The notes under the pieces: model-generated | What the model was told of the DNA's origin: nothing | Seen by the model: only the letters and a program-made list of their open reading frames with translations | The model's database searches: none | Position numbers and translations under genes: made by a program | Part shown: positions 1-15,407 of the stretch, one piece after another | Layout of the letters: each line of letters opens with the position of its first letter | Position numbering within the stretch: the stretch's first letter is position 1 | Source: Gammaproteobacteria bacterium | GTDB taxonomy: Bacteria; Pseudomonadota; Gammaproteobacteria; Pseudomonadales; Pseudohongiellaceae | Assembly: GCA_947457195.1 (NCBI GenBank) | Contig: CANGUU010000007.1 | Location: forward strand, 2,967 to 66,966 | Reading direction: 5' to 3' | Length of the DNA: 64,000 nucleotides

Positions 1-1
1 G

Positions 2-139: not shown

Positions 140-229
140 AGGCGGGGGCGCGACGTTGGCGCTCCGGGCGAGACTCCCGCCGTCGAGACGTTGCCGACAG
201 ACGGGCTTGGCGGTGGCGTCAGGTCGCTT

Positions 230-1561
230 TCAGGGCCCCGCTGGCGGGGCGTTGAGCTGCTCGCTCATGCGCTGCATGTCGTCGGCGCTGAGCGTGCCGG
301 CTTCCCGGTACAGCACCAGTGTCCAGCGCATGAGGTCGTAGCGGGCCTTCTGCAGGTCGCGCTGGGCGCCGAACTGGTCGCGCAGGGCATTGAGTACATC
401 CACGCTGGTCACTGTGCCGAGTTCGTAGCCGCGCTGCATGGCGGCGTAGGCGGTGGCGGTGGACTCAGCCAGCAATTGTGCGGCCTGGATGCGCGATTCC
501 CCGGCCTTGATCTGGAAGTACGCAGTCCGGGCGCGATCCTGCACTTCCAGGCTGGTCAGGCGCAGCTCGCTCTCGGCGATGTTGCGCTGGCTTTCGGCGG
601 CACGCACCTGCGCGCGGTTGCTGCCGCCGGCAAAGATCGGCATGGAAACATCCACGCCGATGTAGTTGATGTCGGCGCGGTCGAGCGGAAAGTTGTCGAA
701 GCCGGTGTTGGTGGTGGAGTGCTGTACCACCAGCGAAACGCGCGGCAGGTAGGCGCCGCGCTGCTGCGATATGGCGCGGTCGGCGGCGCGCAGCGCATAG
801 TCCCGGGCCTCGATGCGCTTGTTGTTGTCGCCCGCGCGCGTCAGCCATTCCTCCAGACTGCCCTCGAGCGGGGTAACCGTGACTTCATCGGGCAGGCGGC
901 TGAGCCCGCCCACGGCGATGCCGCTGCTGGCCTGCAGGTTGGCGCGCTCGATGGTCAGCACGCTTTCAGCATCGACGCGCCGGGTTTCCACGGCAGCGGC
1001 GCGCGCCTGGCCGTCGTAGAGGTCGGTGATCCTGGCGAGCTGCAGATTGAAGAGCTGCTGGATCTGGTTGACCTGATTGCGGGTGGCTTCCAGTTCGGAA
1101 TTGATCGAGCGCAGCGCGTCTTCGGCCTGCAGTGCTGTCAGGTAGTCGTCGGCTACGGCCGTGAGCAGTTCGGCCAGCTGGGCGTAGTACTCGGCTTCGT
1201 TTTGGCCTTCCAGCAGCGTAGCCTGCCGGCGCGCTTCGAATGCCTGCCAGCTGAACAACACCTGGCTCAGCTGCACGGCATAGCGTTCACCAGTGAACTC
1301 CTGCCGCCTGGCGTTTGCCGTACGGCTGTTGTCGGAGATGTTGGCCGTGGCGCTCACCTGCGGCAGCAGCTGGCCGGTGGCAGCATCGATGCGCGCCTCG
1401 CCGATCTTCCAGCGCTCCCGCGCTGCTTGCAGCAGCGGGCTGTAGTTGATGGCAGCGGTAAAGAAGTCTTCCAGCGTGGTCCCCGCGGGCTGAGGGTCCT
1501 GCGCGGAGGCAGTCGCACTGGCCACAAGACCAAGCGTCAGCACCAGAGCATGCAGTTTCAT
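230..1561 (-). CDS. TolC-family outer membrane efflux protein, type I secretion OMP component
   Basis: 443 aa with an N-terminal signal peptide (MKLHALVLTLGLVASATASA). The Q/A/L/R-rich two-repeat composition is typical of TolC. The start lies 2 nt after the stop of the upstream HlyD-family gene, making it the last gene of the ABC-MFP-OMP operon. Confidence 0.85.
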   Translation of the reverse strand: MKLHALVLTLGLVASATASAQDPQPAGTTLEDFFTAAINYSPLLQAARERWKIGEARIDAATGQLLPQVSATANISDNSRTANARRQEFTGERYAVQLSQVLFSWQAFEARRQATLLEGQNEAEYYAQLAELLTAVADDYLTALQAEDALRSINSELEATRNQVNQIQQLFNLQLARITDLYDGQARAAAVETRRVDAESVLTIERANLQASSGIAVGGLSRLPDEVTVTPLEGSLEEWLTRAGDNNKRIEARDYALRAADRAISQQRGAYLPRVSLVVQHSTTNTGFDNFPLDRADINYIGVDVSMPIFAGGSNRAQVRAAESQRNIAESELRLTSLEVQDRARTAYFQIKAGESRIQAAQLLAESTATAYAAMQRGYELGTVTSVDVLNALRDQFGAQRDLQKARYDLMRWTLVLYREAGTLSADDMQRMSEQLNAPPAGP

Positions 1562-1563
1562 GG

Positions 1564-2952
1564 TCAGTCTTCCCGGAAGCTGCGGGCAACGGAATCGGAA
1601 AGCGGCTTCAGCAGATACTGGATGAAGGTACGCGCCCCGGTGGTGATGAACACCTCGGCCGGCATGCCGGGCACGAGCTCCTGTCCGTTCAGTTCCGTGA
1701 GGGATTCAGGCTTCAACGCCAGGCGTGCCAGGTAGAACTGGGTACCCTGCGAATCGGTGAGGATATCGGCCGAGACCGTGGTCACCGTACCGTACAGCAC
1801 CGGTACCGTGCGGCTATTCATGGCGGTCATGCGGACGGATGCCTCTTGGCCGACTGCCACGCGGTCGATGTCCATCGGTGAGATCTTCGCTTCAATGATC
1901 AGCTCGTCGCTCTCCGGCACGATCTCGGCAATGATGGTACCGGGTGGCAGCACGCTCCCCGGCGTATGCACCGTGAGGCCATTGACGATGCCGGCCTCCG
2001 GTGTGCGGACTTCCGTGCGGCTCACTACGTCGGACAGCGCAGTGATGCGCTCGCGGTATTCCTGCAGGCGGGACTGGACGTCCGCGAGCTCCTCCACCAC
2101 ATCGGACTGCAGGCGGTTTTTCAATTGCAGGATCTGCAATCGGGTTTCCCCGATCTGGATTTGCGTGGACGCGATGGTAGCGGCCAGATCAGCGGCATCG
2201 CCATTGGTCAGGGTCAGGCTGCGCTCGAGTTCGCGCAGGCGGGATTTTTCCGCGAAGCCCTCGTCGAGCAACTGGCGGAAGTCCTGCACTTCGTCGCTGT
2301 AGGACGCAGCCAGTGCCAGTTTGCTTTCGCGTACGGCCTGCAATCCCTCCACGCGCGATTCGAGCTGACCGATGCGCTGTTCGAGCACGGAGATCTCGCC
2401 CTCGTTGGTGGTTTTGTTGGCCAGGAATATGCGCTGCTGCGCAGCCATTTCGGCGGCAGCTACCGGGTCGGACAGATCGAGGCCCGCAGGTGCTTCCACC
2501 GTGGTCTTGCCATCGCGCGCGGCCAGCAAGCGGGCCTCCAGCGCAAGCTGCGCTTTCAGCATGCCGCGGAGCGTGTCGAGCTGGCTGAGCGACTGCGTAT
2601 TGTCCATTTCCAGCAAGACATCGTTGGGCTGCACCTTGTCGCCATCGCTCACATGCACCACCTTGACGATACCGCCTTCCAGGTGCTGGATGGGCTTCTT
2701 GAACGACTTGACTGTGACCTGGCCCACGGCGTGGGCTGCGCTGTCGATGGGCGCCAGCACGGCCCACAGGCCGAACACGCCGAACACCAGCCCTGCCACG
2801 AGCAAGCCGATACGCTTCGGTGCATCGATATTGCTTTCATCGCTCGATGCGCGTTCGCGTACGACCAGTACGTCTTCCAGGCGCGCCAGTGCGCCCCCTG
2901 CCGTGTTCGGCACCGGCTCCTTGCCGAACACCACGCCTGAATTGTCTGCCAC
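1564..2952 (-). CDS. HlyD-family type I secretion periplasmic adaptor (membrane fusion protein)
   Basis: 462 aa. It has a single N-terminal TM helix (IGLLVAGLVFGVFGLWAVLAPI), a lipoyl-like hairpin (GGIVKVVHVSDGDKVQPNDVLLEMD), a long coiled coil and a C-terminal beta-barrel domain. It lies between the ABC and TolC genes. Confidence 0.9.
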   Translation of the reverse strand: MADNSGVVFGKEPVPNTAGGALARLEDVLVVRERASSDESNIDAPKRIGLLVAGLVFGVFGLWAVLAPIDSAAHAVGQVTVKSFKKPIQHLEGGIVKVVHVSDGDKVQPNDVLLEMDNTQSLSQLDTLRGMLKAQLALEARLLAARDGKTTVEAPAGLDLSDPVAAAEMAAQQRIFLANKTTNEGEISVLEQRIGQLESRVEGLQAVRESKLALAASYSDEVQDFRQLLDEGFAEKSRLRELERSLTLTNGDAADLAATIASTQIQIGETRLQILQLKNRLQSDVVEELADVQSRLQEYRERITALSDVVSRTEVRTPEAGIVNGLTVHTPGSVLPPGTIIAEIVPESDELIIEAKISPMDIDRVAVGQEASVRMTAMNSRTVPVLYGTVTTVSADILTDSQGTQFYLARLALKPESLTELNGQELVPGMPAEVFITTGARTFIQYLLKPLSDSVARSFRED

Positions 2953-2997
2953 GGCCTTATTCCTGATATCCGAGAGGGGAGATGTTTTGATGCCCGT

Positions 2998-4716
2998 TCA
3001 TGCCGCCGACCCGAGTTTGGGGGCAGGTTGGGCCAGCTGGCTCAGTACCTGCTCGCGCGGGCCAAAGCCCAGCATGGCGCCATCTTTAAGCACCAGCACC
3101 TTGTCGACCGTACCGAGAATCATGGTGCGATGGCTCACGATCACCACCGTACAGCCGGCCGCCTTGATGCGCTGAATGGCCAGCACCAGTTCACGTTCGC
3201 CCTGATCGTCGAGGTTCGAGTTCGGCTCGTCCAGCACCAGCAGGCGTGGCTCGCCATAGATCGCTCGCGCCAGCCCGATGCGCTGGCGCTGCCCACCGGA
3301 CAGCACGCCGCCGCTGCCGCCGATCACCGTATCGTAGCCCTCCGGTTGGCGCAGGATCAGGTCATGCACGCCGGACATCTGCGCGGCCGCCACGATTTTT
3401 TCGGCATCGCGCTCGCCGAAGCGGCAGATGTTGTCGGCGATCGTCCCGTCGAAGAGTTCGATGTCCTGCGGCAGGTATCCGATGTAGGGACCCAGGTCCT
3501 GGCGGTTCCAGAGGGTGATGTCGGCGCCGTCCAGCCGCACTTTGCCGCTGGCCGACGGCCATACGCCGAGGATGGCGCGCGCCAGCGTGGATTTGCCGGA
3601 GGCGCTCGGGCCGATCACGCCCAGCACTTCACCGGCGGCGAGCTGGAAGTTGATGCCGCGCAGCACCGGCACTCGCGCACCCGGCGGCGTCACATAGATT
3701 TGCTCTACCGACAGGTGTCCGAGCGGGGCCGGCAGTTGTAGCCGCTCATTGGTGGCTGGTACCTGTTCGAGCAGCGCGCAGAGGCGCTCGTACTGGGCGC
3801 GGGCGACCGAGAATGATTTCCACGTGCCCACCAGCATATCGATCGGGGCCAGCGCACGACCAAGCAGCAAGGAGCCCGCCACCATCGCGCCGCCGGTCAC
3901 CTCCTGGTTGAGCGCCAGCCAGGCGCCCAGTCCCAGGATGAGCGACTGCACCACCTGTCGGAAGGTCTTCGACATCGATGTGAGGAAGCCGGCCATCTTG
4001 CTGGCCTCGGCCTGCTGGCGGAGAACTTCCTCGCTGTACTGCTGTTGGCGGCGGCGAATCGCCGAAGTCATGCCCATCGCCTCGATGACCTCGGCATTGC
4101 GCAGGCTATTGACCAAGTGAGCGTTGGCCTTCGCCATCTCGACGTTGGCATCCTTGAGGCGACCGGTGGTGCTGATGTCGGTTACGTAGGCCAGACCGGC
4201 CATCACGATGGCGGCGAAGATCGTCATCAGCCCGTAGCTGTAATGGAACATGAACATCACTGCCAGGTAGATGGGAAACCACGGCACGTCGAAAAAGGCA
4301 AAAATACCGTTGCCGGTGAGAAACTGCCGGAGACTGGTGAGGTCGTTGATGGCCTGAGCGTTGCCCTTGCCCTGTGTTGACTGCAGCGCCGTCTTGAAGG
4401 TTGCGTTGAACACGCGCTCACGCAGGGAGCGCTCGATCTTGTTGCTGGCGAACACCAGCAGATAGGAGCGCACCCACTCGAATGCACCGGTAGCCACCAG
4501 CAGGAACAGTACCAGCAGCGTGAGATACAGCAGGGTGGAGTAGCTGCCGCTGGCTAATACACGATCGTAGACCTGCATCATGTATAGGATCGGCGCAAGT
4601 TGCAGAATATTGATCGCTGCACTGAAGGCGCCGGCGTAGATGAAGTGCTGCCGGATCGCCTGCAGCGCATCCAGCAGTTCCCTCGGTGGTTTCGGATAAT
4701 TGAAGTTCTTCATCAC
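2998..4716 (-). CDS. Type I secretion system permease/ATPase (PrtD/RsaD type, no C39 peptidase domain)
   Basis: 572 aa with an N-terminal 6-TM domain (LAPILYMMQVYDRVL motif). Walker A is GPSASGKST, the ABC signature is LSGGQRQR and Walker B is LLVLDEP. The size and the lack of an N-terminal peptidase domain fit RTX/S-layer exporters. Confidence 0.9.
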   Translation of the reverse strand: MMKNFNYPKPPRELLDALQAIRQHFIYAGAFSAAINILQLAPILYMMQVYDRVLASGSYSTLLYLTLLVLFLLVATGAFEWVRSYLLVFASNKIERSLRERVFNATFKTALQSTQGKGNAQAINDLTSLRQFLTGNGIFAFFDVPWFPIYLAVMFMFHYSYGLMTIFAAIVMAGLAYVTDISTTGRLKDANVEMAKANAHLVNSLRNAEVIEAMGMTSAIRRRQQQYSEEVLRQQAEASKMAGFLTSMSKTFRQVVQSLILGLGAWLALNQEVTGGAMVAGSLLLGRALAPIDMLVGTWKSFSVARAQYERLCALLEQVPATNERLQLPAPLGHLSVEQIYVTPPGARVPVLRGINFQLAAGEVLGVIGPSASGKSTLARAILGVWPSASGKVRLDGADITLWNRQDLGPYIGYLPQDIELFDGTIADNICRFGERDAEKIVAAAQMSGVHDLILRQPEGYDTVIGGSGGVLSGGQRQRIGLARAIYGEPRLLVLDEPNSNLDDQGERELVLAIQRIKAAGCTVVIVSHRTMILGTVDKVLVLKDGAMLGFGPREQVLSQLAQPAPKLGSAA

Positions 4717-4990
4717 TGGCCTTTGTGTGCGCCGGCTGCATGGGCTGCGAGCGTAGAGCGCGTGGGGAGTGGTGTGACCGCCGATGGAACCCCAGGCGAA
4801 GTTCCCGCGGAGCTCTGTGGCGCAGAGCCCGCCATACCGCGCTCTGTTTTTGCCTTGTGGCGCGCTACCCGTCGTGCCGTGTTTATGGTGGCATTCGGGC
4901 GCCTTTCAATCGGGAGCGGTCAATTCCGGGTGGATTGTAGCCGAAGGCGGTGGTCACACCTACATCCCATTGGTCGGCACCGCGCCACGG

Positions 4991-5692
4991 TCAAAGCTCC
5001 TTGCTGCCCTCCACGTAGCTCTTCAGCAGGGCCAGCGAAGGGATCAGCAGGCGCGCGGCACCGTCGCGCTGTACCACGCCTTCCTGCTGCAAGGTCTGGA
5101 AGACGCGCGTGACCGTTTCTCGGCTGAGATTGAGCATGATGGCGATCTCCATGTGGGTGGGAGGATTGCGGATCTGCCCTTGCTGCAGTGCTGATTTTTC
5201 CTGCTCCTCCACCAGCAGCCACAGCTGCCAGCACACGCGCTGGGCGATGTTGGGCAGGCCGAGCAATGAGCGCTGCAAAGTGAGTTGCCGCACGCGGCGC
5301 GCCAGACGCTCGCCGAGAGAGGTGACCACCGGTGGGCAGGTTTCCATGGCGTCACGCAGCGCTGGCAACGGCACCCAGACCACCATCGCCGGCGCCAGCA
5401 CGATCACGAACTCCGGCTGTGGGCCGCTGTCGAACAGCGCGAGTTCGCCGCAGAAATCCCCGGGCTCTACGAAAAACAGCCCCACTTCGCGGCCGTCGAC
5501 GGTAAAATCCACGCCCTGCAGACGGCCCTCGAACAGAAAGCAGACGCGCTCTCCCCGCTCGCCGGCCTTCAGCACCACGGCGCGGCGCGCAAAACGCTCC
5601 ACGCTGCTTTGCTGGGCAAGCAGCCCCCGGCCGCTTGCAGGCAGCAGGCGGAGCAGGGGAAACGCGCTGAGCAGCTCGGGTGTGACGACCAT
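4991..5692 (-). CDS. Crp/Fnr-family transcriptional regulator (cNMP-binding-like domain plus C-terminal HTH)
   Basis: 233 aa. The beta-roll core is GDFCGELALF. The C-terminal HTH THMEIAIMLNLSRETVTRVFQTLQQEGVV has a recognition helix R-E-T-V-T-R that matches E. coli CRP RETVGR (R180/E181/R185). By manual alignment the phosphate-binding Arg-Ser of CRP appears replaced by Pro-Glu. Confidence 0.85.
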   Translation of the reverse strand: MVVTPELLSAFPLLRLLPASGRGLLAQQSSVERFARRAVVLKAGERGERVCFLFEGRLQGVDFTVDGREVGLFFVEPGDFCGELALFDSGPQPEFVIVLAPAMVVWVPLPALRDAMETCPPVVTSLGERLARRVRQLTLQRSLLGLPNIAQRVCWQLWLLVEEQEKSALQQGQIRNPPTHMEIAIMLNLSRETVTRVFQTLQQEGVVQRDGAARLLIPSLALLKSYVEGSKEL

Positions 5693-5811
5693 CAGCAGTC
5701 CAGGAAAGCCCCGACAGCCTGGTGGCGGAAAACGCCCAGGCCGGGAGCCGGAAAGACGGAGGCGAGTATAAGTGTCTGAGTTGTAACGGCAAACCGCGGA
5801 TGCGGCAGCCG

Positions 5812-5827
5812 TGTGACCTCGGTCACT
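5812..5827. promoter_or_regulatory. CRP-type box TGTGA-CCTCGG-TCACT (9/10 to TGTGA-N6-TCACA) in the divergent promoter between the Crp-family gene and the FecR/CHASE2 operon
   Basis: Read directly from the sequence. The site centre is 5819.5. A TATACT hexamer on the minus strand (5770-5765) would place the centre near -61.5 for the regulator gene. A TAACAT hexamer on the plus strand (5850-5855) would place it near -42.5 for the FecR operon. Both -10 assignments are by eye only. Confidence 0.45.
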
Positions 5828-6014
5828 TCAGCCCGGGCGCCGCCGGCAGTAACATTTGTGTTCACGAAAACCCGCAAGCGCTCGACTGCAGGAGGGCTTG
5901 ATCCGGTGAAGGCCCGACAGAATGTAGAGTAGCTGCCGCTCGGGTGGGTGGCAGACAGCAGCAGCTGCTGGAGCTGCTCAGGTGAACGTCAAACAGACAG
6001 GTGAGGTTGCTGCC

Positions 6015-7439
6015 ATGCAACGCGTGTCACGGACAATTCCCGCTTTTGCGCTCGCCGCCACTACGCTGCTGGCCGCGGCTGTTGCCAGCGCGTCCGGGGT
6101 AGCGCCAGTGCTGGCCATCGGTGAAATCACGCTCGTGCTCGGCAAGGCCGAAGTCAAGCGCGCCGGTGGCGCCGTGGTGCCCGCCACCGTGGGCCTGCCG
6201 GTGCACGTCAACGACCTGATCGAAACCAATGCGCGCGGCCACGTACACGTGCACTTCGTCGACGATGCGCTGGTGAGCGTGCGGCCGCAGAGCCGGCTGG
6301 AGATCCTGCGCTATGACTACGACCCGGCCCGCCCCGCCGAATCCGCAGTCAAGATGAACCTCATCGAAGGCGAAACCCACGCCATTTCCGGCGAGGCCGC
6401 CAAGGCCGCGCGCCAGAATTACCGCATGAACACGCCCATCGCTGCCATCGGCGTGCGCGGCACGGACTACACGGTCACCGCCTCGCGTGAGGCCGTCACC
6501 GCCATCGTCAACGAAGGGGCCATCGTGGTGGCGCCGTTTTCCAGCGGTTGCTCGGCTGACACGCTCGGGCCCTGCAACCAGGGTGCCGTGGAGCTGAACG
6601 GCTATTCGCGTGAGCTGCTGGCACTCAGTGCCGACGCCGCCGGCGTGCGCTCCACGCTGCTGCCGCTCGGGCCGGTGGAAGGCCGCGCCGCCGAATTGCA
6701 GACGGCACCCAGCCCAGAACCGCAGGCCACCGCCAAGCAGGCCGAAGGCCAGCAGCTCTACAACGACACGGTCTCCACCCGTACTGTGAACACCAAGTTG
6801 GCCAGCTCCAGCGAATCCGCCAAGGCGCCAGCCGCTCCCACGCCGCTGGCGCCCACCCCGGTGCCGGTCACGCCCGCCCCTCCGCCCGTGCCTGAATTCA
6901 CGCCGCCCGTAGCCGTGCCTGCCACCACGCTCGCCAGTCAGGGCCAGCTGGTGTGGGGCCGCTGGACCGAAAACAACCTGGCCAACGAGCGCATCTCGGT
7001 TTCGTACGATGTCGCCCGCCAAGATGGCCGCAGCGTGTCGGTGGGCAACACGGTCTACGCGCTGTTCCGCGCCAGCGGCAGCGAGACCGTCTTCAAGCCC
7101 ACGCTCGGCGTGCTGCAGTTCAGCTTGCAGAAAGCGCAGGCCCTCTACAGCACGGCCGGCCGGACCGACCTCATGGGCGTTTCCGGCGGCAAATTGCAGC
7201 TGGACTTCGAACAGGCGCTGTTTTCCACCACGTTGCAGCTCAGCCACGAGGCGCTCGGTAATTACCAGTTCGCCACCAGCGGGCGTATTTATTCCGGCGG
7301 CGTGTTCCACGCCAACAACGAGACGCAGGCCATGGCCGGCGCACTCAGTTACGACAACAAGGAAGCCGGCTACTTCTTCGAGCGCACGCTGCCCGGCGGC
7401 ACCATCTCCGGCATCACCCTGTGGAACCGCGCCCCGTGA
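6015..7439 (+). CDS. Secreted FecR-domain protein with Pro-rich linker and C-terminal beta-rich domain
   Basis: ATG 6015 is preceded by AGGTGAGG (5999-6006). The signal peptide is MQRVSRTIPAFALAATTLLAAAVASA with no lipobox Cys. The FecR-like segment is GEITLVLGKAEVKRAGG...VHVNDLIETNARGHVHVHFVDDALVSVRPQSRLEI. A Pro-rich linker (APAAPTPLAPTPVPVTPAPPPVP) is followed by a roughly 170-aa domain with an alternating-hydrophobic pattern. An alternative GTG start lies at 5982. Confidence 0.75.
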   Translation: MQRVSRTIPAFALAATTLLAAAVASASGVAPVLAIGEITLVLGKAEVKRAGGAVVPATVGLPVHVNDLIETNARGHVHVHFVDDALVSVRPQSRLEILRYDYDPARPAESAVKMNLIEGETHAISGEAAKAARQNYRMNTPIAAIGVRGTDYTVTASREAVTAIVNEGAIVVAPFSSGCSADTLGPCNQGAVELNGYSRELLALSADAAGVRSTLLPLGPVEGRAAELQTAPSPEPQATAKQAEGQQLYNDTVSTRTVNTKLASSSESAKAPAAPTPLAPTPVPVTPAPPPVPEFTPPVAVPATTLASQGQLVWGRWTENNLANERISVSYDVARQDGRSVSVGNTVYALFRASGSETVFKPTLGVLQFSLQKAQALYSTAGRTDLMGVSGGKLQLDFEQALFSTTLQLSHEALGNYQFATSGRIYSGGVFHANNETQAMAGALSYDNKEAGYFFERTLPGGTISGITLWNRAP

Positions 7440-9433
7440 AAAACAGCGCCGCCATGGCCGCCTTGCTCCGGATACCCGGCCGCCTGATCGGCCAGTGGCA
7501 GCCGTGGCAGGCGCGTGCCGGACTGCTGGCCGGTGCCGGCCTGCTCACGCTGTTGCTGCAGGCCCTGCTGCCGTCCCTGGTTTCTGGCGTCGAGGAGCAG
7601 CTCGGCAGTCTCGGATGGCGCCTCGCGCCCGATGCCCGGCAGGAAGAGCGCATCAACATCATTGCGATCGACGAGAAGAGCCTCGCCGAGGTGGGCCCGT
7701 GGCCCTGGTCGCGGCAGACCATGGCGCAGCTTGCCACCGCCCTGCAGCAGGCCGGCGTGCAGCTGCAGGCCTACGACATCGCCTTCCCCGAAGCCCGTGA
7801 GGGCGACGATGCCTTCGCCGCCGCGCTGGCCGGCACCAGCGCCGTGCTGGCGCAGGTGCCCGACCTGCTCAATCCGGGCCAGATCACCACCACCGGCCTG
7901 CTCGGGTCGCCGCTGCTCGGCGTGGCCTGCAGCAACGCCGCCAGCACCGGCAGCTACACCGGCAACACGGCCGCGCTGGCCGGCATCGCCGCCGGCCATG
8001 CCACGCCCATCGTCGACGGTGATGGCGCGGTGCGCCGCGTGCCGGCCTATATCTGTGTGAACGGGCAGCCCTATCCGGCACTGGCGTTGAGTGCCCTGCT
8101 CGCCGCCACCCGCACGGACAGCTGGCAGGCCACGCGCAGCACAGGCGCCGGGCCCTGGCAGGCGGTGCAGCAACTCACCTTCGCGGCCTACCCCGGGCTT
8201 GCCATTCCCCTCGACGCCGACGGCAATTTCCGCGTGTCGTTCCGCCAGTCCCCCGACGCCTACCGCGCAATTTCGGCCGCCGACGTGCTGGCCGGCCGCG
8301 TAGACCCCGGCGTGCTGGCCAACAGCTGGGCGCTGGTCGGCTTCACCGCCTTCGGCATGAACGATGTCGTCCCCACTCCCTTCAACGGCGCCGCCCACGG
8401 CGTGGAACTGCAGGCCCGCATCCTTGCCAGCGTGCTCGACGCCAACGTCCCCTTCACCCCGCGGGCGGCGCCCTGGCTGCTGGCGCTGCTGTGTGCCGGT
8501 TTCGCCGCCCTGCTGTGGGGGCTGGCCGCCGCGCGGGAGCGGCTCGGTAACTATGGGTTGGCGGCCGGTGCTCTGCTGCTGCCGGCGCTGGCGCTCTATG
8601 TCCACATGCAGGTGCTGGCACAGTCCGCCTGGTGGCTGGGCTGGTTTGCGCCGGCCGTGTTCGGGTTCCTGGCGGGCAGCCTGTTGCTGCTGCAGGAATA
8701 TGCCCGAGTGCGTTTCGAGCGGGCGCGGGTGTTTGGCAACCTCAGCAGCTACCTGCCAGCCGAGGTGGCCGAGGCCATTGCCTTCAGCCTTCCCGGTTCG
8801 TCGGTGAATGCCGAGCGCCGCAACGTGACGCTGCTCAGTGCCGATCTGCGCAATTTCTCGGCCTTCGGCGAAGCGCGGCCGCCCGAAGAATCGGCGGCGC
8901 TGCTGCACATGTTCTTCAGCAAAAGCACCGAGATCGTGGAGCGTTGCCACGGCCGCATCCACGAATTCAAGGGCGATTCGCTGCTGGCCGTGTGGGAAGG
9001 CAGCGACGCCAAGGCCGCCAACCACGCGGTGCAGGCCGCCCTGCTCATGCAGAGCGCCATCAGCGAGTTCCTGCCGCAGCACCCCCCTGCAGGGCTTGAG
9101 CCGCTGGCGCTCGGCATCGGCATCGAACAGGGGCCGGTGCTCATCGGCTCGCTGGGTTCGGCCCAGCGCCGCAGCCATACGCTGCTGGGCGAAACGGTCA
9201 CCATCACGCTGCGCATTCAGGAGATGACTGCCGAACTCGCCCATCCCGTGCTGATCGGCGAATGCGCTGCCCGCCAGCTGGCGGATCTGGCGCTGGTGTC
9301 GCAGGGCAGCTACCTGCTGGCCGGCCTGCGCAATCCGCATATACTCTACGCGCTTCCGTTCAGCGCCCTGGCGCAGGCAACTGCCAGGATCGAACAGCCT
9401 CCTCTCAGAGTGGTGCGCGGCGGACGCAGTTGA
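7436..9433 (+). CDS. CHASE2-domain membrane sensor fused to a class III adenylate/guanylate cyclase
   Basis: The GTG start overlaps the FecR stop (GTGA, 7436-7439). The architecture is an N-terminal TM, a roughly 300-aa periplasmic CHASE2-like domain, three TM helices (APWLLALLCAGFAALLWGLAAA...) and a cyclase domain. The cyclase domain has metal Asp motifs (LLSADLRNFS, FKGDSLLAVW) and GETVTITLRIQ. The Lys in FKGD is compatible with ATP specificity but does not prove it. The start could also be 7421 or 7454. Confidence 0.85.
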   Translation: MKNSAAMAALLRIPGRLIGQWQPWQARAGLLAGAGLLTLLLQALLPSLVSGVEEQLGSLGWRLAPDARQEERINIIAIDEKSLAEVGPWPWSRQTMAQLATALQQAGVQLQAYDIAFPEAREGDDAFAAALAGTSAVLAQVPDLLNPGQITTTGLLGSPLLGVACSNAASTGSYTGNTAALAGIAAGHATPIVDGDGAVRRVPAYICVNGQPYPALALSALLAATRTDSWQATRSTGAGPWQAVQQLTFAAYPGLAIPLDADGNFRVSFRQSPDAYRAISAADVLAGRVDPGVLANSWALVGFTAFGMNDVVPTPFNGAAHGVELQARILASVLDANVPFTPRAAPWLLALLCAGFAALLWGLAAARERLGNYGLAAGALLLPALALYVHMQVLAQSAWWLGWFAPAVFGFLAGSLLLLQEYARVRFERARVFGNLSSYLPAEVAEAIAFSLPGSSVNAERRNVTLLSADLRNFSAFGEARPPEESAALLHMFFSKSTEIVERCHGRIHEFKGDSLLAVWEGSDAKAANHAVQAALLMQSAISEFLPQHPPAGLEPLALGIGIEQGPVLIGSLGSAQRRSHTLLGETVTITLRIQEMTAELAHPVLIGECAARQLADLALVSQGSYLLAGLRNPHILYALPFSALAQATARIEQPPLRVVRGGRS

Positions 9434-9468
9434 GTTGCCCGCCACTTTCGGAGTTCCCTGGCGCTGTG

Positions 9469-10929
9469 ATGCTTGCCGCCCCTTCCAACCTGTGGGAGCA
9501 CAGGTCTGCGACGTCCTTGCCGCGCTCGGGTCCGCACGGTCACGCTCAGCCTTCCCGCTGCTCCGCTTCCCGCCCGGTCTCCCGGCCGCCCGTCTTGCTT
9601 CGCCGCTGGCGTGTTGGCGCCTTGCTCGCGCCTTTGCTGCTGGTGCTGGGGTTGCCCGCCGCGCTCGGGCAAACATGCCCGCCGCTGCAACCTTATTACC
9701 CGGCCAGCAACCCCGCCCCACCGGAGGAGTGGCAGGCGCGGCTGCCACAGCTGGAGGCCTTGCTGGAAAACTGCCTGCAAAGCGCCGAGTACTTTGCGCT
9801 GCTGGGCGCCGCCCGGCTCAACAGCGGGCAGGTGCCGGCGGCAGTGGAATCGCTGGAGCGCGCGCTGCTGCTGCAGCCCGGCCACGGTGCCGCCCAGATC
9901 GACTACGCCGAAGCGCTGTACCTCAGCGGCCAGCTGTTCCCGGCGCTGGAACTGAACGAGACAGTGCTCGGCCGCAGTGACCTGCCCCCCGCCCTGCGGC
10001 CGGTGATCGAGGCACGGCAGCAGTTCTGGCGCGGGCAGACCCGGCGCCGCCAGCTTTCGCTGGAAGCCACTGCCGGCTACGACACCAACCTCAACAACGC
10101 CCCCACGCGCGGCGACCTGACGCTTACCTTCGGCGGCACGCCGGTCACGCTCAGCGTGGACCCGCAGTTCCGCCCGGTGGAAGGCCGCTTTGGCAACCTG
10201 CGTGCCGGCGGCGTGTGGCAGTGGCTCACCCCCGACCACCAGCATGACTTTACGGCCAACCTGCGCGGCCGCTTCACCGGCAGCGGCGCCACCGCGCTCA
10301 ACCAGGCCCAGTGGCGCTACGGCTTCAGCCGGCCCGGCCGCCACACGGTGTGGACGGCCAACGTAGGCAGCAGCCACATGAGCTTTGGGGGTAACGCCCT
10401 CTACAGCGTGGGCGAAACCCTCCTTACGCTGGGCTGGAACAGCGCCGGCCGCTGCCAACCCGCCCTGAGCGGTGGCCTGCAGACCCTGCACTACCACGGC
10501 CAGCGGGTGATGGACGGTCTGGAGGCCAGCCTGACCGCCAGCCTCGGCTGCCGGTCGGCCAGCGGCCGCCAGCAGCTACGGGTAGACGCCGGCGGACTGG
10601 ATAACAGCGCCAGCAGCGCCAACCGGCCCGGCGGCGACCGCGCCGGCTGGAACCTGCGGCTGGGCTGGCAGTACCAGTCCGGCCGGCACCTGTGGAGCGC
10701 GCTCTACAGCCACGCCAGCGTAGAAGACCAGCGCGGCTACAGCCCGCTGCTGGCCAATGGAGCCACCCGCCGGTTGGGCAACCGGGTGCTCCTGCTGCGC
10801 TACCAATGGGGCTTTGCGGAGGGCGCCGCCTTGGTGCTGGGGCTGAGCCACCAGGCCCAGTCCAGCAACCTGCAACCGTTCCAGAATCGTGGCACTGCAA
10901 CCGAAGTGGGACTGCTGCTCAACTTCTAG
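9469..10929 (+). CDS. TPR-containing outer-membrane beta-barrel protein (possibly Slam/DUF560-like)
   Basis: The signal-like segment is LLRRWRVGALLAPLLLVLGLPAALG. TPR-like helices follow (SAEYFALLGAARLNSGQVPAAVESLERALLLQPGHGAAQIDYAEALY). About 300 aa of amphipathic beta strands begin at LSLEATAGYDTNLNNAP and end in the aromatic terminus GLLLNF. The start is uncertain: ATG 9469 or TTG 9595. The Slam/DUF560 assignment is my pattern recognition only. Confidence 0.55.
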   Translation: MLAAPSNLWEHRSATSLPRSGPHGHAQPSRCSASRPVSRPPVLLRRWRVGALLAPLLLVLGLPAALGQTCPPLQPYYPASNPAPPEEWQARLPQLEALLENCLQSAEYFALLGAARLNSGQVPAAVESLERALLLQPGHGAAQIDYAEALYLSGQLFPALELNETVLGRSDLPPALRPVIEARQQFWRGQTRRRQLSLEATAGYDTNLNNAPTRGDLTLTFGGTPVTLSVDPQFRPVEGRFGNLRAGGVWQWLTPDHQHDFTANLRGRFTGSGATALNQAQWRYGFSRPGRHTVWTANVGSSHMSFGGNALYSVGETLLTLGWNSAGRCQPALSGGLQTLHYHGQRVMDGLEASLTASLGCRSASGRQQLRVDAGGLDNSASSANRPGGDRAGWNLRLGWQYQSGRHLWSALYSHASVEDQRGYSPLLANGATRRLGNRVLLLRYQWGFAEGAALVLGLSHQAQSSNLQPFQNRGTATEVGLLLNF

Positions 10930-11134
10930 CCTTTTCCAAGTCTTTACAGCTGCTTACAGGCAATTCTTTACACTCGCTGTCAGGTGCTTGCAATGCCCTA
11001 CACGGCACGGTAGTCTTGCCACGCTTGTACTGCCCCTGACCAGCTCTTGCTCGCGCTGGGGCGTGGTCCAGTGCAAGGCAGTACCACGAACAACGTAGCA
11101 GGGCGGTCCGCAGTGGCCGGGAAAATGGCAGGTC

Positions 11135-11150
11135 TGTGACGCGAGTCACA
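11135..11150. promoter_or_regulatory. Perfect CRP consensus box TGTGA-CGCGAG-TCACA upstream of the S-layer-like gene
   Basis: Read directly: tgtga (11135-11139), cgcgag, tcaca (11146-11150). The centre is 11142.5, 117 bp upstream of ATG 11267, in a 337-bp lower-GC intergenic region. Confidence 0.6.
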
Positions 11151-11171
11151 CGCAGTGGCCAAGCCCGCCAG

Positions 11172-11177
11172 TAATAT
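11172..11177 (+). promoter_or_regulatory. Putative -10 hexamer TAATAT for the S-layer-like gene
   Basis: The TAATAT hexamer implies a TSS near 11184. That puts the CRP box centre at -41.5 (class II geometry) and gives a 5' UTR of about 83 nt ending in a strong SD, AAGGAG (11252-11257). This is a by-eye assignment with no TSS data. Confidence 0.3.
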
Positions 11178-11266
11178 CCACCCTGCTACAAGAGGCGAAA
11201 TTCCTCTACAAACCCAGTACCACTTGCCTTACCAACAACACCCTAAACTCCAAGGAGATATACAAG

Positions 11267-14200
11267 ATGGCGTCTATATCCGCTGAAGGCCGCAGTGAAC
11301 TCATTGCCCTTTACGTCACCATGTTCAACGCAGCCCCGAGCGCAGCCAACCTGTCTGCCATCGTGGGCCAGAGAGAAGGTGGCGCCAGCCTCGTGGCCGT
11401 TGCCAATACTCTGGCAGCCAGCCCCGATTTCGCCCGCCAGTATCCGGGCTTCCTGACGGCCGACGAATTTGCCAACCGTCTGGCCACCAACATGCTGGGC
11501 AGTGAGGTTTCCGCTGCCACTCGTGACTGGGCCGTGAACTACGTTCGCAGCCAGCTCACCTCCGGCCGCGCCGCCACTGCTGTGGTCACCGAGGCCGTCC
11601 AGGCCCTGCGCGGCACCACCAACACCGAATTTGCCAATGCCAAAGCACTGCTGGCCAACAAAGTGGAAGTTGCTTCCTACTACGCAATCTCGAAGGAGCA
11701 GCCAGCCGATTCCCAGGTTGTCATGATTGGTGTTACCAGTACTGCCTCGACGGTTGTCAGTGCAAAAACCGCAATCGATAGCATTGCGAGCGTAGTGGCT
11801 GGCCAGACCTTCACGCTCACTACCAGCGCCAACACGGGTGCCCTGTTTACTGGTGGTGCCGGTGACGATTCCTACAACGGCGATTTGAGCGGCGGCAACA
11901 ACACTCTGAATGCGCTGGATCGTCTCGATGGCGGCGCAGGGACGGATACGCTGAACGCTGTATTGGCGTCCGACGTTACGCCCGCCAGCATTGCCAACAT
12001 CGAAAACATCGTGGCTACTGCCTCGGGTGGCGCGCGTGAACTCAACCTGGTCAATGCACCAGGAGTCCGGTCTGTAAGCTCCACGTCCTCCTCTGGCGGC
12101 GTGATGACGGTCAGCGGCATTGCTGCTGGTGCATCGCTTGCCGTCAACTCCCAGTCCGTCGGCGCCACGTTCAACTACGCCGACACCTCGGGTACGCAAT
12201 CAATCGCCCTTGGCGTAGCCGGTGTAACAGGCGCAGCCCCTGTCACGGTAAACGGAGTAGAAACAATTGCCGTAACGGCAACGGGTTCCGCCAGCACCTA
12301 CCAGCTGTCGGCCGATGCACTGACCTCGGTGAGCTTTGCCGGTTCGGCTGCGCAAACCGTCACTCTGGCCGGTATGACCGGCACCTCTAGCTTCAACGCG
12401 GGTGCTGCTACCGGTGCTGTCAACCTGACCCTGATCAACCAGTCTATTCTGGCGTCCACCACGCGCGTGACCGTCACCGGCGGAACTGGTAACGATACGC
12501 TGACTGTCGGCGCCCATACGCAGTCCGACCTCAACGTCTCTGCCGGTGCTGGCAACGACACGGTAAGCCACAGCAGTGTTTCCACCACTGATACCCTCAG
12601 CGGCGGCGATGGAACCGATACGCTGAGCACCACAATGGCTTCCGCCAATGCGATCGATGCATCCGCCCCACTCACACGCATCATTACCGGCTTTGAGCGC
12701 ATTACGATCACTGACGCGTTCGACGGTACCCTTAGCCTATCCAACATCGACACTGGGCTTGTCCAGGTCAATCTGGCAGACGGTGCATCCGGCGCTGGTG
12801 CGTTGATGACTGGCGGTGACGCCATCACCGGCCCTGCGGGCACGCTGACAGTGAACGTTGGTGGCTCCTCTGCAGGTAACGCCACGACCATGGGCGGCGC
12901 ACTTACCGTGACGGACACCGGTACAGCGACGACGGACTCGGTAATCATCAACAATACGGCTGTCAACACCACGACTGCCCTTGGCATCAACGTGTTTAAC
13001 GCCCAAAACATCACGTCCACCGGCTATGAGAATGTCACCATTGGCGTTGGTAGCTCGGGTACGACTGCACCGGCGTCTACGATTGGTACACTCACCATTA
13101 CGCCGGACGATTTGACGGCAGCCATATCGCTCACACTGACCGGTGGAAACGATGTGACCATCTCAAGCGTGACATCGACGGGAACTGGTCGCCTGACCAT
13201 TGACGCCTCTGCCGTCAATGCCGGAACCGACAGCCCATACGTTCAGATCGACGCAGTTACCCTCGGAACAGGTGGCACTGCCAGCATCATTGGTTCTGCT
13301 GGTAACGACAGCATCACCAGCGGAACTGTTGCACAGACGATCTCCGGCGGTGCTGGTAACGATACCATCACCGGTGGCACAGCCGCCGACAACATCAGCG
13401 GCGATGCTGGCAACGACACCATCACTGATGGCGCGGGTGGCAATGACACTATCGCTGGTGGTGATGGTAACGACACGATCACCGTGACGGGTACCTCTAC
13501 CGTAAGCGTAGATGGTGGTGCCGGTAACGACACCATTAACATCGGTAGCGTATTGTCGGCGCTTGACACCGTAAGCGGGGGTGATGGTACCGATACTCTC
13601 CGTTACTCCAGTGCCGTTACCGCAGACGTTGCTGTAGGGGTGGCAGGCTTCGAAACGCTGCGCGCCGACGCTGCGCTAACGCAGGATATGGTGCAGTTCG
13701 TAAATAATGCTGGCTTTACCCGCTTGATCAACCAGGTTGCTGGTGCCGTAACGTTCAACAACGTCGGCAGCGCCGTGACCTCGTTCACCGCGGGCGTTGC
13801 GGGCTCAACGACTACTATTGATCGCCTGCTGGATACGACATCCAACAGCCTCTCGGTATCACTGACCACTGCAACGACGACGACTGCACTCACTGCAAGT
13901 GATGAAGAAACTATCACGGTGAGTTCCAGCTTGACTGGTGCAGTCACCCTGACCACACTGACGGCGGACGACTTGACCACGCTGAATATTGGCGGTCTTG
14001 GCGCCGTTACCATCACCAACATCGCCAATGCAGCCAACTTGGCTGCAATCAATATCACGACCTCGGCGGCGGTATCGGTGAATGGAAACCAGTCCACGGT
14101 TAATATGACGGCGACCGGTACATCAGCATTCGCCAACACCATTACCGGTGGTTCTGGCAATGACGTGATCACGGGTGGTTCTGCAGCAGATAGCCTCACG

Positions 14201-14869
14201 GGCGGCGGCGGCGCCGATACCGTCTCCGGTGGTAACGGCGACGATATCTTGCTGGGTGGCAGCGGTGCCGACAGCATCACGGGCGGTGAAGGCTCCGATA
14301 GCGTTACTGGTGGCACTGGCAACGACACCGTGGTTCTTACCGAGAACTCCGCTGTAGCGGACACGGTGGTTCTGTCCACAGCGGCTACCAATGGTGTTGA
14401 TACCATCGTCGGTTTTGCGGCGGGTGCAGGGGCAGACATCATCCAGTTCGTCAATGCCGACACCACGCAGGCCGATGCTGCAGGCGCAGGCGCATTCCAA
14501 GACATTGCTGCAGTCACCTTGGTGAACGCTGCCGCCTACGATCTGGCCGCAGTCATCAACACTGCTACAATTTCCGTGGTGGAACTGCGAGGCACAACCG
14601 CAGCCAACGGCGATCTGGGTGCGGCGACCGATGGTTCAGAATTGCTGAAGTTACTCGGCACCGCCGACTCGGCAGCGACCGGCATCACCGTTGACAACAA
14701 CGGTGATCAGCTCTTCCTGGTAGCGTACGACAACGGCAATGCCTACCTGTTCCATGCAAACTCCGGTGCTGACACTACCGTCTCAGCCTCTGAGATCCGG
14801 TTGGTGGGTATCCTCACGGGTATCACGGTTGGTGCAATTGCTGACGGCGACATCGTAAGCTTGGCCTAA
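11267..14869 (+). CDS. RTX-repeat, T1SS-secreted S-layer-like surface protein (RsaA-type architecture)
   Basis: 1200 aa, rich in Thr/Ala/Gly/Ser/Val, and I saw no Cys. The N-terminal helical domain of about 150 aa is not repeat-like. Long beta-strand repeats follow. Two blocks of GGxGxD nonapeptides are present (GGAGNDTITGGTAADNISGDAGNDTITDGAGGNDTIAGGDGNDTI and GGSGNDVITGGSAADSLTGGGGADTVSGGNGDDILLGGSGADSITGGEGSDSVTGGTGNDTV). There is no N-terminal signal peptide. The C-terminus ...LFLVAYDNGNAYLFHANSGADTTVSASEIRLVGILTGITVGAIADGDIVSLA has the style of uncleaved T1SS signals. Confidence 0.8.
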   Translation: MASISAEGRSELIALYVTMFNAAPSAANLSAIVGQREGGASLVAVANTLAASPDFARQYPGFLTADEFANRLATNMLGSEVSAATRDWAVNYVRSQLTSGRAATAVVTEAVQALRGTTNTEFANAKALLANKVEVASYYAISKEQPADSQVVMIGVTSTASTVVSAKTAIDSIASVVAGQTFTLTTSANTGALFTGGAGDDSYNGDLSGGNNTLNALDRLDGGAGTDTLNAVLASDVTPASIANIENIVATASGGARELNLVNAPGVRSVSSTSSSGGVMTVSGIAAGASLAVNSQSVGATFNYADTSGTQSIALGVAGVTGAAPVTVNGVETIAVTATGSASTYQLSADALTSVSFAGSAAQTVTLAGMTGTSSFNAGAATGAVNLTLINQSILASTTRVTVTGGTGNDTLTVGAHTQSDLNVSAGAGNDTVSHSSVSTTDTLSGGDGTDTLSTTMASANAIDASAPLTRIITGFERITITDAFDGTLSLSNIDTGLVQVNLADGASGAGALMTGGDAITGPAGTLTVNVGGSSAGNATTMGGALTVTDTGTATTDSVIINNTAVNTTTALGINVFNAQNITSTGYENVTIGVGSSGTTAPASTIGTLTITPDDLTAAISLTLTGGNDVTISSVTSTGTGRLTIDASAVNAGTDSPYVQIDAVTLGTGGTASIIGSAGNDSITSGTVAQTISGGAGNDTITGGTAADNISGDAGNDTITDGAGGNDTIAGGDGNDTITVTGTSTVSVDGGAGNDTINIGSVLSALDTVSGGDGTDTLRYSSAVTADVAVGVAGFETLRADAALTQDMVQFVNNAGFTRLINQVAGAVTFNNVGSAVTSFTAGVAGSTTTIDRLLDTTSNSLSVSLTTATTTTALTASDEETITVSSSLTGAVTLTTLTADDLTTLNIGGLGAVTITNIANAANLAAINITTSAAVSVNGNQSTVNMTATGTSAFANTITGGSGNDVITGGSAADSLTGGGGADTVSGGNGDDILLGGSGADSITGGEGSDSVTGGTGNDTVVLTENSAVADTVVLSTAATNGVDTIVGFAAGAGADIIQFVNADTTQADAAGAGAFQDIAAVTLVNAAAYDLAAVINTATISVVELRGTTAANGDLGAATDGSELLKLLGTADSAATGITVDNNGDQLFLVAYDNGNAYLFHANSGADTTVSASEIRLVGILTGITVGAIADGDIVSLA
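13340..13602 (+). repeat. RTX Ca-binding nonapeptide repeat block 1 (coding repeat)
   Basis: Tandem GGxGNDTI units are read in frame from Ile692 onward, with further GGAGNDTINIG and GGDGTDTL units up to about 13602. Confidence 0.8.
14141..14335 (+). repeat. RTX Ca-binding nonapeptide repeat block 2 (coding repeat)
   Basis: Seven consecutive GGxGxDx(L/I/V)x units are read in frame, from ITGGSGNDV to GGTGNDTVV. Confidence 0.85.
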
Positions 14870-14891
14870 CCCGTAATATCTTGGCGTAATG

Positions 14892-14926
14892 AAAACCCGC
14901 CCCCCAAAAGGGGGCGGGTTTTTTTT
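14892..14926 (+). terminator. Rho-independent terminator after the S-layer-like gene
   Basis: A 9-bp GC stem (cccgccccc at 14896-14904 pairing with gggggcggg at 14910-14918) has a 5-nt loop and is followed by T8 (14919-14926). It is preceded by A4, so it may be bidirectional. Confidence 0.85.
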
Positions 14927-15398: not shown

Positions 15399-15407
15399 GG
15401 GTAAAAA

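Follow-up and report, generated by a model that had tools for sequence, protein, structure and literature searches.

A predicted local regulon for an RsaA-like S-layer protein candidate in Pseudohongiellaceae, with a CRP-like regulator and a CHASE2 sensor operon

Surface-layer (S-layer) proteins frequently outnumber every other protein in the cell, and the control of their synthesis level in Gram-negative bacteria is poorly understood; we know of no S-layer model system for which a dedicated regulator has been shown. The locus described here raises the question of whether such control can be encoded next to the S-layer gene itself. It occupies positions 230-14926 of a 64,000-nucleotide (nt) stretch of contig CANGUU010000007.1 (assembly GCA_947457195.1, Pseudohongiellaceae), which is referred to below as the window. 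A type I secretion system (T1SS) operon and a gene for a 1200-aa RTX protein flank a gene for a CRP/FNR-family regulator and a divergent operon that encodes a FecR-domain protein, a CHASE2 protein with a class III cyclase-homology domain, and a TPR protein. The first-pass annotation of this DNA had proposed that an envelope signal activates the CHASE2 cyclase, that the resulting cyclic nucleotide acts on a CRP-family factor, and that this factor drives transcription of an S-layer gene. Taken as a whole, we consider it reasonably probable that the locus is a self-contained local regulon for making a surface layer. Its transcriptional wiring appears well supported, and the cyclic-nucleotide link appears doubtful in this lineage.

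The predicted wiring starts from two CRP-type boxes. A search of the window for TGTGA-N6-TCACA with at most one mismatch returned only the two sites already reported in the first-pass annotation: box 1 (5812-5827; TGTGACCTCGGTCACT, one mismatch), common to the divergent promoters of the regulator gene and the sensor operon, and box 2 (11135-11150; TGTGACGCGAGTCACA, a perfect match), in a class II position for the S-layer gene candidate. Two or more matches arise in 25 of 100 shuffles of the window, so that two matches anywhere in it are not unusual; the unusual part is that both lie inside two promoter regions of one cluster. Conservation was assessed in 80 genomic loci around orthologs of the cyclase-homology protein (1.32 Mb), onto which all proteins of the window were mapped, and the relatives of the window proved to be Pseudohongiella and other Pseudohongiellaceae (Gammaproteobacteria). 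The order TolC-MFP-ABC-crp <> fecR-CHASE2-TPR, where <> marks divergent genes, is kept in about 75 Pseudohongiellaceae genomes, and synteny holds in essentially all of the ~70 loci with enough flanking sequence, at a cyclase identity of 52-67%. The 1.32 Mb contain 160 boxes with at most one mismatch, 136 of which sit at two homologous positions. The crp<>fecR spacer accounts for 74, and all but one of 75 loci have a box there; a further 62 (60 perfect, two with one mismatch) lie just 3' of the TPR gene and precede the large gene that comes next. Seven other boxes are perfect, six of them over the crp stop codon in one subclade and one ahead of a displaced RTX gene, and the remaining 17 have one mismatch and occur at the chance rate of about one per 64 kb. 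Conservation at homologous positions thus indicates that both boxes are real and beyond chance, and together with the synteny it rules out a chance co-location of the genes and boxes. The first-pass proposal that these genes make up one functional unit is borne out by this conservation and by the unrelated lineages described below.

The position of the boxes relative to putative promoter elements is that of an activator. In the sensor operon, a -10 element (TAACAT, 5850-5855, plus strand) places box 1 at about -41.5/-42.5, and ahead of the S-layer gene candidate a -10 element (TAATAT, 11172-11177, plus strand) places box 2 at -41.5; the transcription start predicted from the latter would give a 5' untranslated region (UTR) of ~83 nt. 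A conserved TAnnnT begins 29.5 bp past the box centre in 75 loci for box 1, and does so as TAtncT in 61 loci for box 2, which corresponds to class II (-41.5) geometry at both boxes. On the opposite strand, a consensus scan found a sigma-70-like promoter for the regulator gene (5765-5792, minus strand; TTGCCG, 16-nt spacer, TATACT) that sets box 1 at a class I distance of about -61.5, and its ATTATA/TAGCAA words are kept in relatives. For each of the sensor operon, regulator gene and RTX gene, a box would therefore stand where an activator binds, in agreement with the original proposal. The final consensus A of the crp<>fecR box is nearly always absent, with T, C or G in its place in 71 of 74 loci; this consistent difference from the near-always perfect S-layer box could create a hierarchy of occupancy.

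The S-layer gene candidate appears to be transcribed alone. An intrinsic terminator, CCCCCAAAAGGGGG followed by a T run (14901-14924, plus strand), lies directly 3' of it, which points to a monocistronic, box-controlled unit. The distance from the box to the start of the gene behind it is ~120 nt in 54 Pseudohongiellaceae loci. Many of these 5' UTRs (L008, L024, L042, L055 and others) carry a motif, CTTGGCACAnCCGA ... TCGGATAAAAC, about 30-110 nt past the box; it is absent in the window and in locus L006, both of which have a short hairpin instead (AGAGG-CGAAATT-CCTCT in the window, ~11195-11212). The T1SS operon of the window has no box ahead of it in the crp-ABC spacer. A conserved -10-like element is found there (TACAAT, 4934-4939, minus strand), and G(T/C)TACAAT or TATAAT followed by GGTTGAAA-like words recurs over 64 crp-ABC spacers, so this element is probably a box-independent promoter of the T1SS operon. 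Six loci of one Pseudohongiella subclade have a third, perfect box over the regulator stop codon, upstream of the T1SS ABC gene (L020:7434, L027:7428, L042:7421, L051:7493, L052:3543 and L072:7362).

The candidate reader of these boxes is the adjoining regulator (4991-5692, minus strand; 233 aa). It belongs to the CRP/FNR superfamily, with a beta-barrel domain of the type that binds cyclic nucleoside monophosphates (cNMP) and a C-terminal Crp-type helix-turn-helix (Pfam cNMP_binding 6.5e-13, HTH_Crp_2 1.3e-13, Crp 5.2e-06), and it matches the structures of GlxR, M. tuberculosis Crp, CAP and Vfr. Its recognition helix reads SRETVTR, and all 75 orthologs keep the equivalents of R180, E181 and R185 (Arg-Glu-x-x-x-Arg). 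CRP proteins touch DNA directly with the first two residues of the RETVGR helix and with its last (PMC10187061), and the invariant helix fits TGTGA half-sites. From these residues, the local regulator would be expected to bind both boxes.

The ligand side of the regulator departs from this canonical pattern. The cNMP-binding signatures of CRP proteins are RS (RT in CgrA) and TS (PMC10187061). Here the ligand loop reads GELALFDSGPQPEFV, with Gln-Pro, and a conserved Glu after it, in place of the Arg-Thr of GlxR and the Arg82-Ser83 of CAP, and the phosphate-binding Arg-Ser/Thr of the cNMP pocket is absent from all 75 orthologs. The equivalents of CAP Thr127-Ser128 are Leu-Thr in the window, the first position being Met in 56 orthologs, Leu in 17 and Ala in two. 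The regulator reaches 70.2 bits against the NCBIfam CRP equivalog NF008732, far below the cut-off of 266. Among 1.84 billion cluster representatives searched, the ~30 nearest full-length clusters (50% identity) contained no canonical Arg-Ser/Thr and mostly had a Glu two positions on, and more distant clusters mostly read PRSA at the loop. A Burkholderiales member of the regulator subfamily (L095:10001-10702, on a contig that ends directly after the gene) has the loop GQPRPEFV, in which the Arg is kept and Pro-Glu is already present; it may stand midway between the canonical form (PRSA) and the non-canonical one (PQPE).

A corresponding departure is seen in the cyclase-homology protein (7436-9433, plus strand, alternative start 7421; Pfam CHASE2 8.4e-45, Guanylate_cyc 5.9e-11). 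The protein has the build of a CHASE2 receptor, with the CHASE2 domain at residues 47-365 and hydrophobic segments at 31-49, 348-366, 375-393 and 401-419, which gives a predicted topology of one transmembrane (TM) segment, a periplasmic CHASE2 domain, three TM segments and a cytoplasmic cyclase domain. All 79 orthologs have the metal-binding Asp470 and Asp514, and these residues together with Arg578 and Arg593 are conserved in 78-79 of the 79 (Arg593 in 78). The position of the catalytic Asn is Thr589 in the window and is never Asn among the orthologs (T in 63, S in six, A in five, G in four and V in one), which indicates that the catalytic role of this Asn has been lost in this lineage. The substrate-specifying pair of class III cyclases is Lys/Asp or Lys/Thr for ATP and Glu/Cys or Glu/Gly for GTP. 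In this protein the pair is Glu510/Thr582, with Glu in all 79 orthologs where adenylate cyclases have Lys; Glu510 aligns with the Lys of the engineered adenylate-cyclase fusion 6FHT and with the Glu of chain 2W01, which we take to be the Synechocystis Cya2 guanylyl cyclase. We know of no characterization of a Glu/Thr substrate pair. The claim that a cNMP acts on the CRP-family factor is thus not supported as worded for this lineage, as the ligand signature is missing from every regulator ortholog and the cyclase has Glu for Lys and no Asn throughout.

The predicted output of the circuit is the 1200-aa RTX protein (11267-14869, plus strand; HemolysinCabind 2.8e-28), the presumed T1SS substrate. 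Thr, Ala, Gly and Ser make up 54% of its residues, it contains no Cys, and acidic residues outnumber basic ones 102 to 26. Sixteen GGxGxD-like motifs were found, clustered at residues 676-771 and 961-1015, which fits the calcium-binding repeats and uncleaved C-terminal architecture of a T1SS substrate. A sequence match to RsaA (5n97) extends over ~345 residues at ~20% identity (E 1.9e-6), beyond the generic RTX matches. An AlphaFold (AF2) model built on 38 homologs (mean predicted local distance difference test [pLDDT] 85.6) has a helical N-terminal domain (~1-171) followed by long beta-rich domains, and a Foldseek search of the PDB puts C. crescentus RsaA entries at ranks 1-6 (E 1.6e-15 to 2.6e-12, probability 1.00), with the next match at E 2e-3. 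The protein is thus an RsaA-like S-layer protein candidate whose modeled fold is RsaA-like, as the first-pass annotation had supposed, and it would be expected to form an S-layer lattice. Anchoring of such a lattice in LPS O-antigen, as for RsaA-like proteins, would find indirect support in the sugar, glycosyltransferase and SapC genes close by and in the conserved N-terminus. A generic RTX toxin or protease was considered and set aside, as no protease, lipase or toxin domain was found and RsaA ranks above all other folds. In the 54 orthologs behind the box the N-terminus is conserved (MAIT.EAR.EII.LVVGMFGAAPGA...) and the remainder is hypervariable, a combination that follows the S-layer pattern of a conserved anchoring domain and a variable body; almost all complete open reading frames (ORFs) at this place are ~720 to 2400 aa long. 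Some of the RTX homologs are named S-layer protein by the Joint Genome Institute (JGI).

The S-layer gene candidate may have a history separate from that of its control region. It lies in a low-GC island (11.0-18.8 kb; 11000-18840) with a GC content of 0.57-0.60 and a third-position GC content of ~0.65, compared with ~0.8-0.88 in neighboring genes, and the island holds the RTX gene, two small ORFs and two GT4 glycosyltransferases (590 aa and 414 aa, the latter with Pfam Glyco_trans_4_3; 15824-18837, plus strand). The closest homologs of the RTX protein (50-56% identity) lie outside Pseudohongiella, with Janthinobacterium at 54% and closer ones on metagenome contigs. The two glycosyltransferases are 44-73% identical to ones beside RTX homologs in unrelated taxa. 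For the 414-aa enzyme the identity to those of Janthinobacterium, Rhodocyclaceae and others is 62-73%, against 28-37% for the regulatory genes, so that the S-layer gene and glycosyltransferases look like a cassette that can be exchanged beneath a control region which is itself conserved. This suggests that the cassette has been exchanged horizontally.

The association also occurs beyond the Pseudohongiellaceae. The neighborhoods of seven RTX homologs from other taxa were examined, and relatives of the regulator served as a second starting point. Janthinobacterium sp. BJB412 (L084) has the arrangement crp-VanZ-TPR-CHASE2 cyclase <> fecR-RTX ... GT-GT-ABC-MFP-OEP (GT, glycosyltransferase) with four perfect boxes, one before fecR, one before the RTX gene and two before the T1SS ABC gene (18221 and 18273), and the Logan contig L089 shares its layout and boxes, with the two before the ABC gene at 16323 and 16375. 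In a Rhodocyclaceae metagenome-assembled genome (L087), crp, the CHASE2 cyclase and the TPR protein adjoin the RTX gene, and the box was not found at this locus. Starting from the regulator, Cycloclasticus (L093) shows crp <> fecR-CHASE2-barrel-like protein-large RTX-like gene with perfect boxes at both places; a JGI contig (L096) has parts of the same type, with a perfect box before a large S-layer-like gene and another, with one mismatch, between crp and fecR; and in Methylobacter (L094) the four-gene core, whose spacer contains a box with one mismatch, has no RTX gene beside it. The association of the gene set is thus recurrent over two proteobacterial classes but not universal. Contig L096 carries IS605-family TnpB/TnpA and two RPA/TrfA-like replication genes among the module genes (17790-19466; 5189-6127 and 11171-12091), a hint that mobile DNA can carry the module. 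An RTX homolog of another genome, which has no cyclase/CRP module (L086:17825-20782, GCA_003279455.1), is near a 985-aa T1SS ABC transporter with weak N-terminal cNMP_binding and Peptidase_C39 matches; this transporter may represent a different way to link nucleotides with secretion.

The residues of the two partners differ together across these lineages. The Janthinobacterium, L089 and Rhodocyclaceae cyclases combine Lys or Arg as the first specificity residue and Thr as the second with both the Asn and the Arg, and their regulators have the canonical Arg-Ser ligand loop. In Cycloclasticus and on contig L096 the transition-state Arg of the cyclase is lost as well, and L096 has Lys instead of Glu. 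That cyclase and regulator residues change together argues that the partners work together. Several independent events were considered as the source of this covariation and rejected: regulator identity is 41-50% within the non-canonical forms and 36-37% to the canonical ones, so that the non-canonical forms look like one clade and the change is maybe a single evolutionary event.

From these elements the following mechanism can be proposed. The regulator (4991-5692) would recognize the two TGTGA-N6-TCACA boxes. At box 2 it would activate the monocistronic, terminator-bounded RsaA-like S-layer gene from a class II position, and the product would exit through the adjoining PrtD-type T1SS, which would be expressed from its own promoter in this lineage and under box control in others. 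At box 1 it would activate the fecR-CHASE2 'cyclase'-TPR operon, again with class II geometry, and probably, with class I geometry, its own gene, closing a feedback loop. The FecR, CHASE2 and TPR proteins would form an envelope-spanning sensor that reports the state of the envelope or surface to the regulator. For the betaproteobacterial versions, cyclic AMP (cAMP) is the most likely messenger, because cyclase and regulator are both canonical there. In the lineage of the window both the cyclase domain and the ligand loop are off canonical cNMP chemistry, and thus the sensor-to-regulator step probably uses something else, such as a different ligand, a weak or altered cyclase product, direct contact of the cyclase-homology domain with the regulator, or a regulator active in its apo form, in which case the sensor operon would act as an output.

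Several points weigh against the local regulon as a whole. DNA binding, activation and the lattice are predictions from sequence and modeled structure. A regulator that has no cNMP signature, next to a cyclase with no catalytic Asn, puts the input to the regulator in doubt, and the sensor operon could be the output of the regulator rather than its input. A global CRP/Vfr of the same consensus could occupy the boxes. The TPR protein C-terminus is a probable outer-membrane beta-barrel, a weak assignment. Four of the seven RTX homologs outside the Pseudohongiellaceae have no module within 10 kb, and the TM-scores to RsaA are low (0.20-0.29) despite the strong E-values, as expected for an extended multi-domain protein. 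These low scores, the lack of a match to any S-layer model in Pfam and NCBIfam, and the fact that RTX repeats and beta-roll/beta-helix folds are common to many exoproteins would also suit a 1200-aa protein that is some other T1SS exoprotein (an adhesin, matrix or biofilm protein) in a circuit that controls adhesion; a role of cAMP-CRP in Shewanella biofilm maintenance is documented (PMC8938473). We find this rather improbable, given that the six best folds are all RsaA, at E-values about ten orders of magnitude better than generic RTX matches, that the helical N-domain and long beta region are arranged as in RsaA, and that the conserved N-terminus, hypervariable body, Cys-free, very acidic and Thr/Ala/Gly/Ser-rich composition, own terminator of a monocistronic gene, and adjoining SapC and O-antigen-type sugar genes all speak for an S-layer protein.

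Another alternative concerns how the local regulator would receive its signal. Read literally, the CHASE2 cyclase would make cAMP or cyclic GMP (cGMP) on an envelope signal, and the regulator would bind this nucleotide and activate the S-layer gene and sensor operon. The tight and ancient linkage of the two genes, the near-complete conservation of Asp470, Asp514, Arg578 and Arg593, and the canonical relatives in Janthinobacterium, L089 and Rhodocyclaceae are all compatible with this; a GTP substrate is conceivable from the alignment of Glu510 with the 2W01 Glu, and R. centenum CgrA-cGMP acts in just this way from a perfect TGTGA-N6-TCACA box (PMC4681086). However, all 75 regulator orthologs have Gln-Pro-Glu and Leu/Met/Ala-Thr for Arg-Ser/Thr and Thr-Ser, the Asn position is never Asn in 79 cyclases, and L093 and L096 have no transition-state Arg either, which makes the literal reading unlikely for this lineage. 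We tentatively give a little more weight, well short of an even chance, to the idea that an ancestral CHASE2 adenylate cyclase and its cAMP-CRP partner both lost their canonical messenger chemistry in Pseudohongiellaceae, Cycloclasticus, Methylobacter and relatives, yet stayed strictly linked and wired to the same boxes and work without cAMP or cGMP. The cyclase-homology domain would then control the regulator directly, or both would share a new ligand, and a trans-envelope feedback would match S-layer production to the state of the cell surface. A last alternative would remove the local regulator from the boxes, leaving these to a cAMP-CRP/Vfr encoded elsewhere, with the S-layer locus in a catabolite-type regulon and the local CRP-like protein in another role. 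TGTGA-N6-TCACA is indeed the generic CRP consensus, and related regulators in Pseudomonadales use it. This alternative seems very improbable, as the boxes in 1.32 Mb are essentially confined to the locus and elsewhere occur at chance counts, one of them lies in the promoter region of the local regulator in 74 of 75 loci, the Arg-Glu-x-x-x-Arg helix is kept in 75 of 75 orthologs, and the pairing of box and local regulator persists in Betaproteobacteria. A local regulon read by its own CRP-like regulator therefore remains the interpretation we prefer.

The other genes of the locus are consistent with this organization, and Pfam and NCBIfam place all eight genes claimed earlier where the first-pass annotation had put them. 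A PrtD-type ABC permease/ATPase without a C39 domain (2998-4716; TIGR01842, 737.5 bits against a cut-off of 510), an HlyD-family periplasmic adaptor (MFP, 1564-2952; TIGR01843, 366 bits against 208.65) and a TolC-family outer-membrane channel (230-1561; Pfam OEP 6.6e-50; TIGR01844, 220.4 bits, marginally below the cut-off of 225.15), all on the minus strand, together make up a T1SS in one cluster, and the channel is syntenic in nearly all related loci. The FecR-domain protein (6015-7439, plus strand, alternative start 5982; Pfam FecR 2.8e-10; 474 aa by public gene call) is predicted to be periplasmic, with a hydrophobic N-terminal segment in its hydropathy profile as signal peptide. Its NCBIfam matches are limited to the Leptospira surface lipoproteins LipL45 and Lsa33 and are weak, far under the cut-offs. 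For the TPR protein, the earlier start at 9262 overlaps the cyclase gene and is better replaced by that of the public gene calls, which give 486 aa (~9469-10929, plus strand; start codon uncertain). It has a signal-like N-terminal segment by hydropathy and ends in ...LLLNF, with the terminal F or W conserved. TPR families are clear in 28 of 29 members, with weak matches to OMP_b-brl and Porin_4 (two each) and TPR_Slam (three); a profile of 29 orthologs matched only TPR proteins in the PDB, and a single-sequence AlphaFold model was unusable (pLDDT 36.6). Taken with the Leptospira lipoprotein matches of the FecR-domain protein, the weak matches of a few orthologs to the Slam TPR family raise the speculative idea that the TPR/barrel protein might display the FecR-domain protein on the cell surface.

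Downstream of the RTX gene, the two small ORFs and two glycosyltransferases are followed by a SapC-family gene (18901-19797, plus strand; Pfam SapC 1.5e-51), more glycosyltransferases and nucleotide-sugar enzymes. The SapC family is named after the C. fetus S-layer secretion locus, and its gene is found near the locus in many relatives. An Rfam scan of window positions 1-20000 found no known RNA families. Elsewhere in the window, a 517-aa protein with a Peptidase_M10 (matrixin-type) domain (24981-26534), ~10 kb from the T1SS, could be secreted, and a 1260-aa ORF with no Pfam match beside a BatA/VWA protein (52952-58768, minus strand) belongs to a region that resembles an aerotolerance-type (Bat) operon.

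A comparison with known systems shows that every piece of this circuit has a precedent. The S-layer and its secretion resemble RsaA-RsaD/E/F of C. crescentus, an RTX S-layer protein with a helical N-domain and beta body served by a PrtD/AprD-type T1SS without C39; to our knowledge no dedicated sensor, regulator or CRP box has been described for rsaA, and our literature search brought up none either. C. fetus sapA-sapCDEF shares the conserved S-layer N-terminus and variable remainder, the adjoining T1SS and the SapC-family gene, but its S-layer variation arises through DNA inversions among sap homologs, unlike the sensor and regulator module found here. The regulatory half is closest to two systems in which a cyclase and a CRP-like protein form a pair that autoregulates through a perfect CRP box, Clr/CyaD1/NsrA of S. 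meliloti and CgrA/Gcy of R. centenum. R. centenum CgrA is a CRP homolog encoded with cyclase-related genes, with a perfect TGTGA-N6-TCACA box ahead of the cluster and a feed-forward loop (PMC4681086, PMC10187061). Unlike the regulator described here, with its Gln-Pro, CgrA keeps the RT signature and binds cGMP, and the output is encystment through sigma factors, not an S-layer or T1SS. In S. meliloti, the CHASE2 cyclases CyaD1, CyaD2 and CyaK work with the outer-membrane beta-barrel NsrA and the CRP-like Clr, whose targets include the FecR-domain protein SMc02177 and the TPR protein SMb20495 (PMC5498481, PMC7529298). An inner-membrane CHASE2 protein, a CRP-like regulator, and FecR-domain and TPR proteins are thus common to both, but Clr binds cAMP and cGMP and uses the box TGTTN8AACA or a relaxed HGTYHCNNNNGRWACA, NsrA is ~1200 aa long, the outputs are infection control, succinoglycan and motility with no S-layer or T1SS, and the regulator here matches Clr (7pza) weakly, at 37.9 bits.

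CRP-like proteins can be active in the apo form and controlled by other factors, as in the inhibition of Clp by cyclic di-GMP (PMC10187061), and the Clp proteins of Xanthomonas and Lysobacter, as well as Thermus regulators, act without cAMP. The regulator of the window can be likened to these, but unlike Clp it belongs to a separate subfamily with a conserved Pro-Glu loop, is always paired with a CHASE2 cyclase-like sensor operon, and matches Clp (3iwz) more weakly than CRP itself. FecA-FecR-FecI likewise encodes an outer-membrane protein, a FecR-domain periplasmic part and a cytoplasmic transcription factor together; the likeness is conceptual only, as there is no extracytoplasmic function (ECF) sigma factor, TonB-dependent receptor or anti-sigma domain here, and the membrane component is instead the CHASE2/cyclase-homology protein. 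The first-pass annotation knew of no S-layer/RTX T1SS locus with a dedicated envelope-sensing cyclase and CRP-type control, and any claim that nothing comparable is known needs tempering as regards the parts: cyclase/CRP-like autoregulating pairs are known in S. meliloti and R. centenum, while our literature search, which left most subscription journals outside its reach, found no such module wired to an S-layer/T1SS locus and nothing on Pseudohongiella S-layers. What appears to be new is the coupling to an S-layer/T1SS locus and the paired loss of messenger-chemistry residues.

The annotation labels 'adenylate/guanylate cyclase' and 'cAMP-binding CRP' are unsafe on these genes. The locus offers a testable circuit comprising one regulator, two conserved operators with textbook activator geometry, an envelope-spanning sensor, a T1SS and an exchangeable cassette, and this predicted circuit is found in two or more proteobacterial classes, with cultivable strains in both Janthinobacterium and Pseudohongiella. 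It would also provide a natural experiment in the evolution of signaling, in which a canonical branch can be compared with a sister branch that has lost hallmark residues in each partner and has kept both the synteny and the operators.

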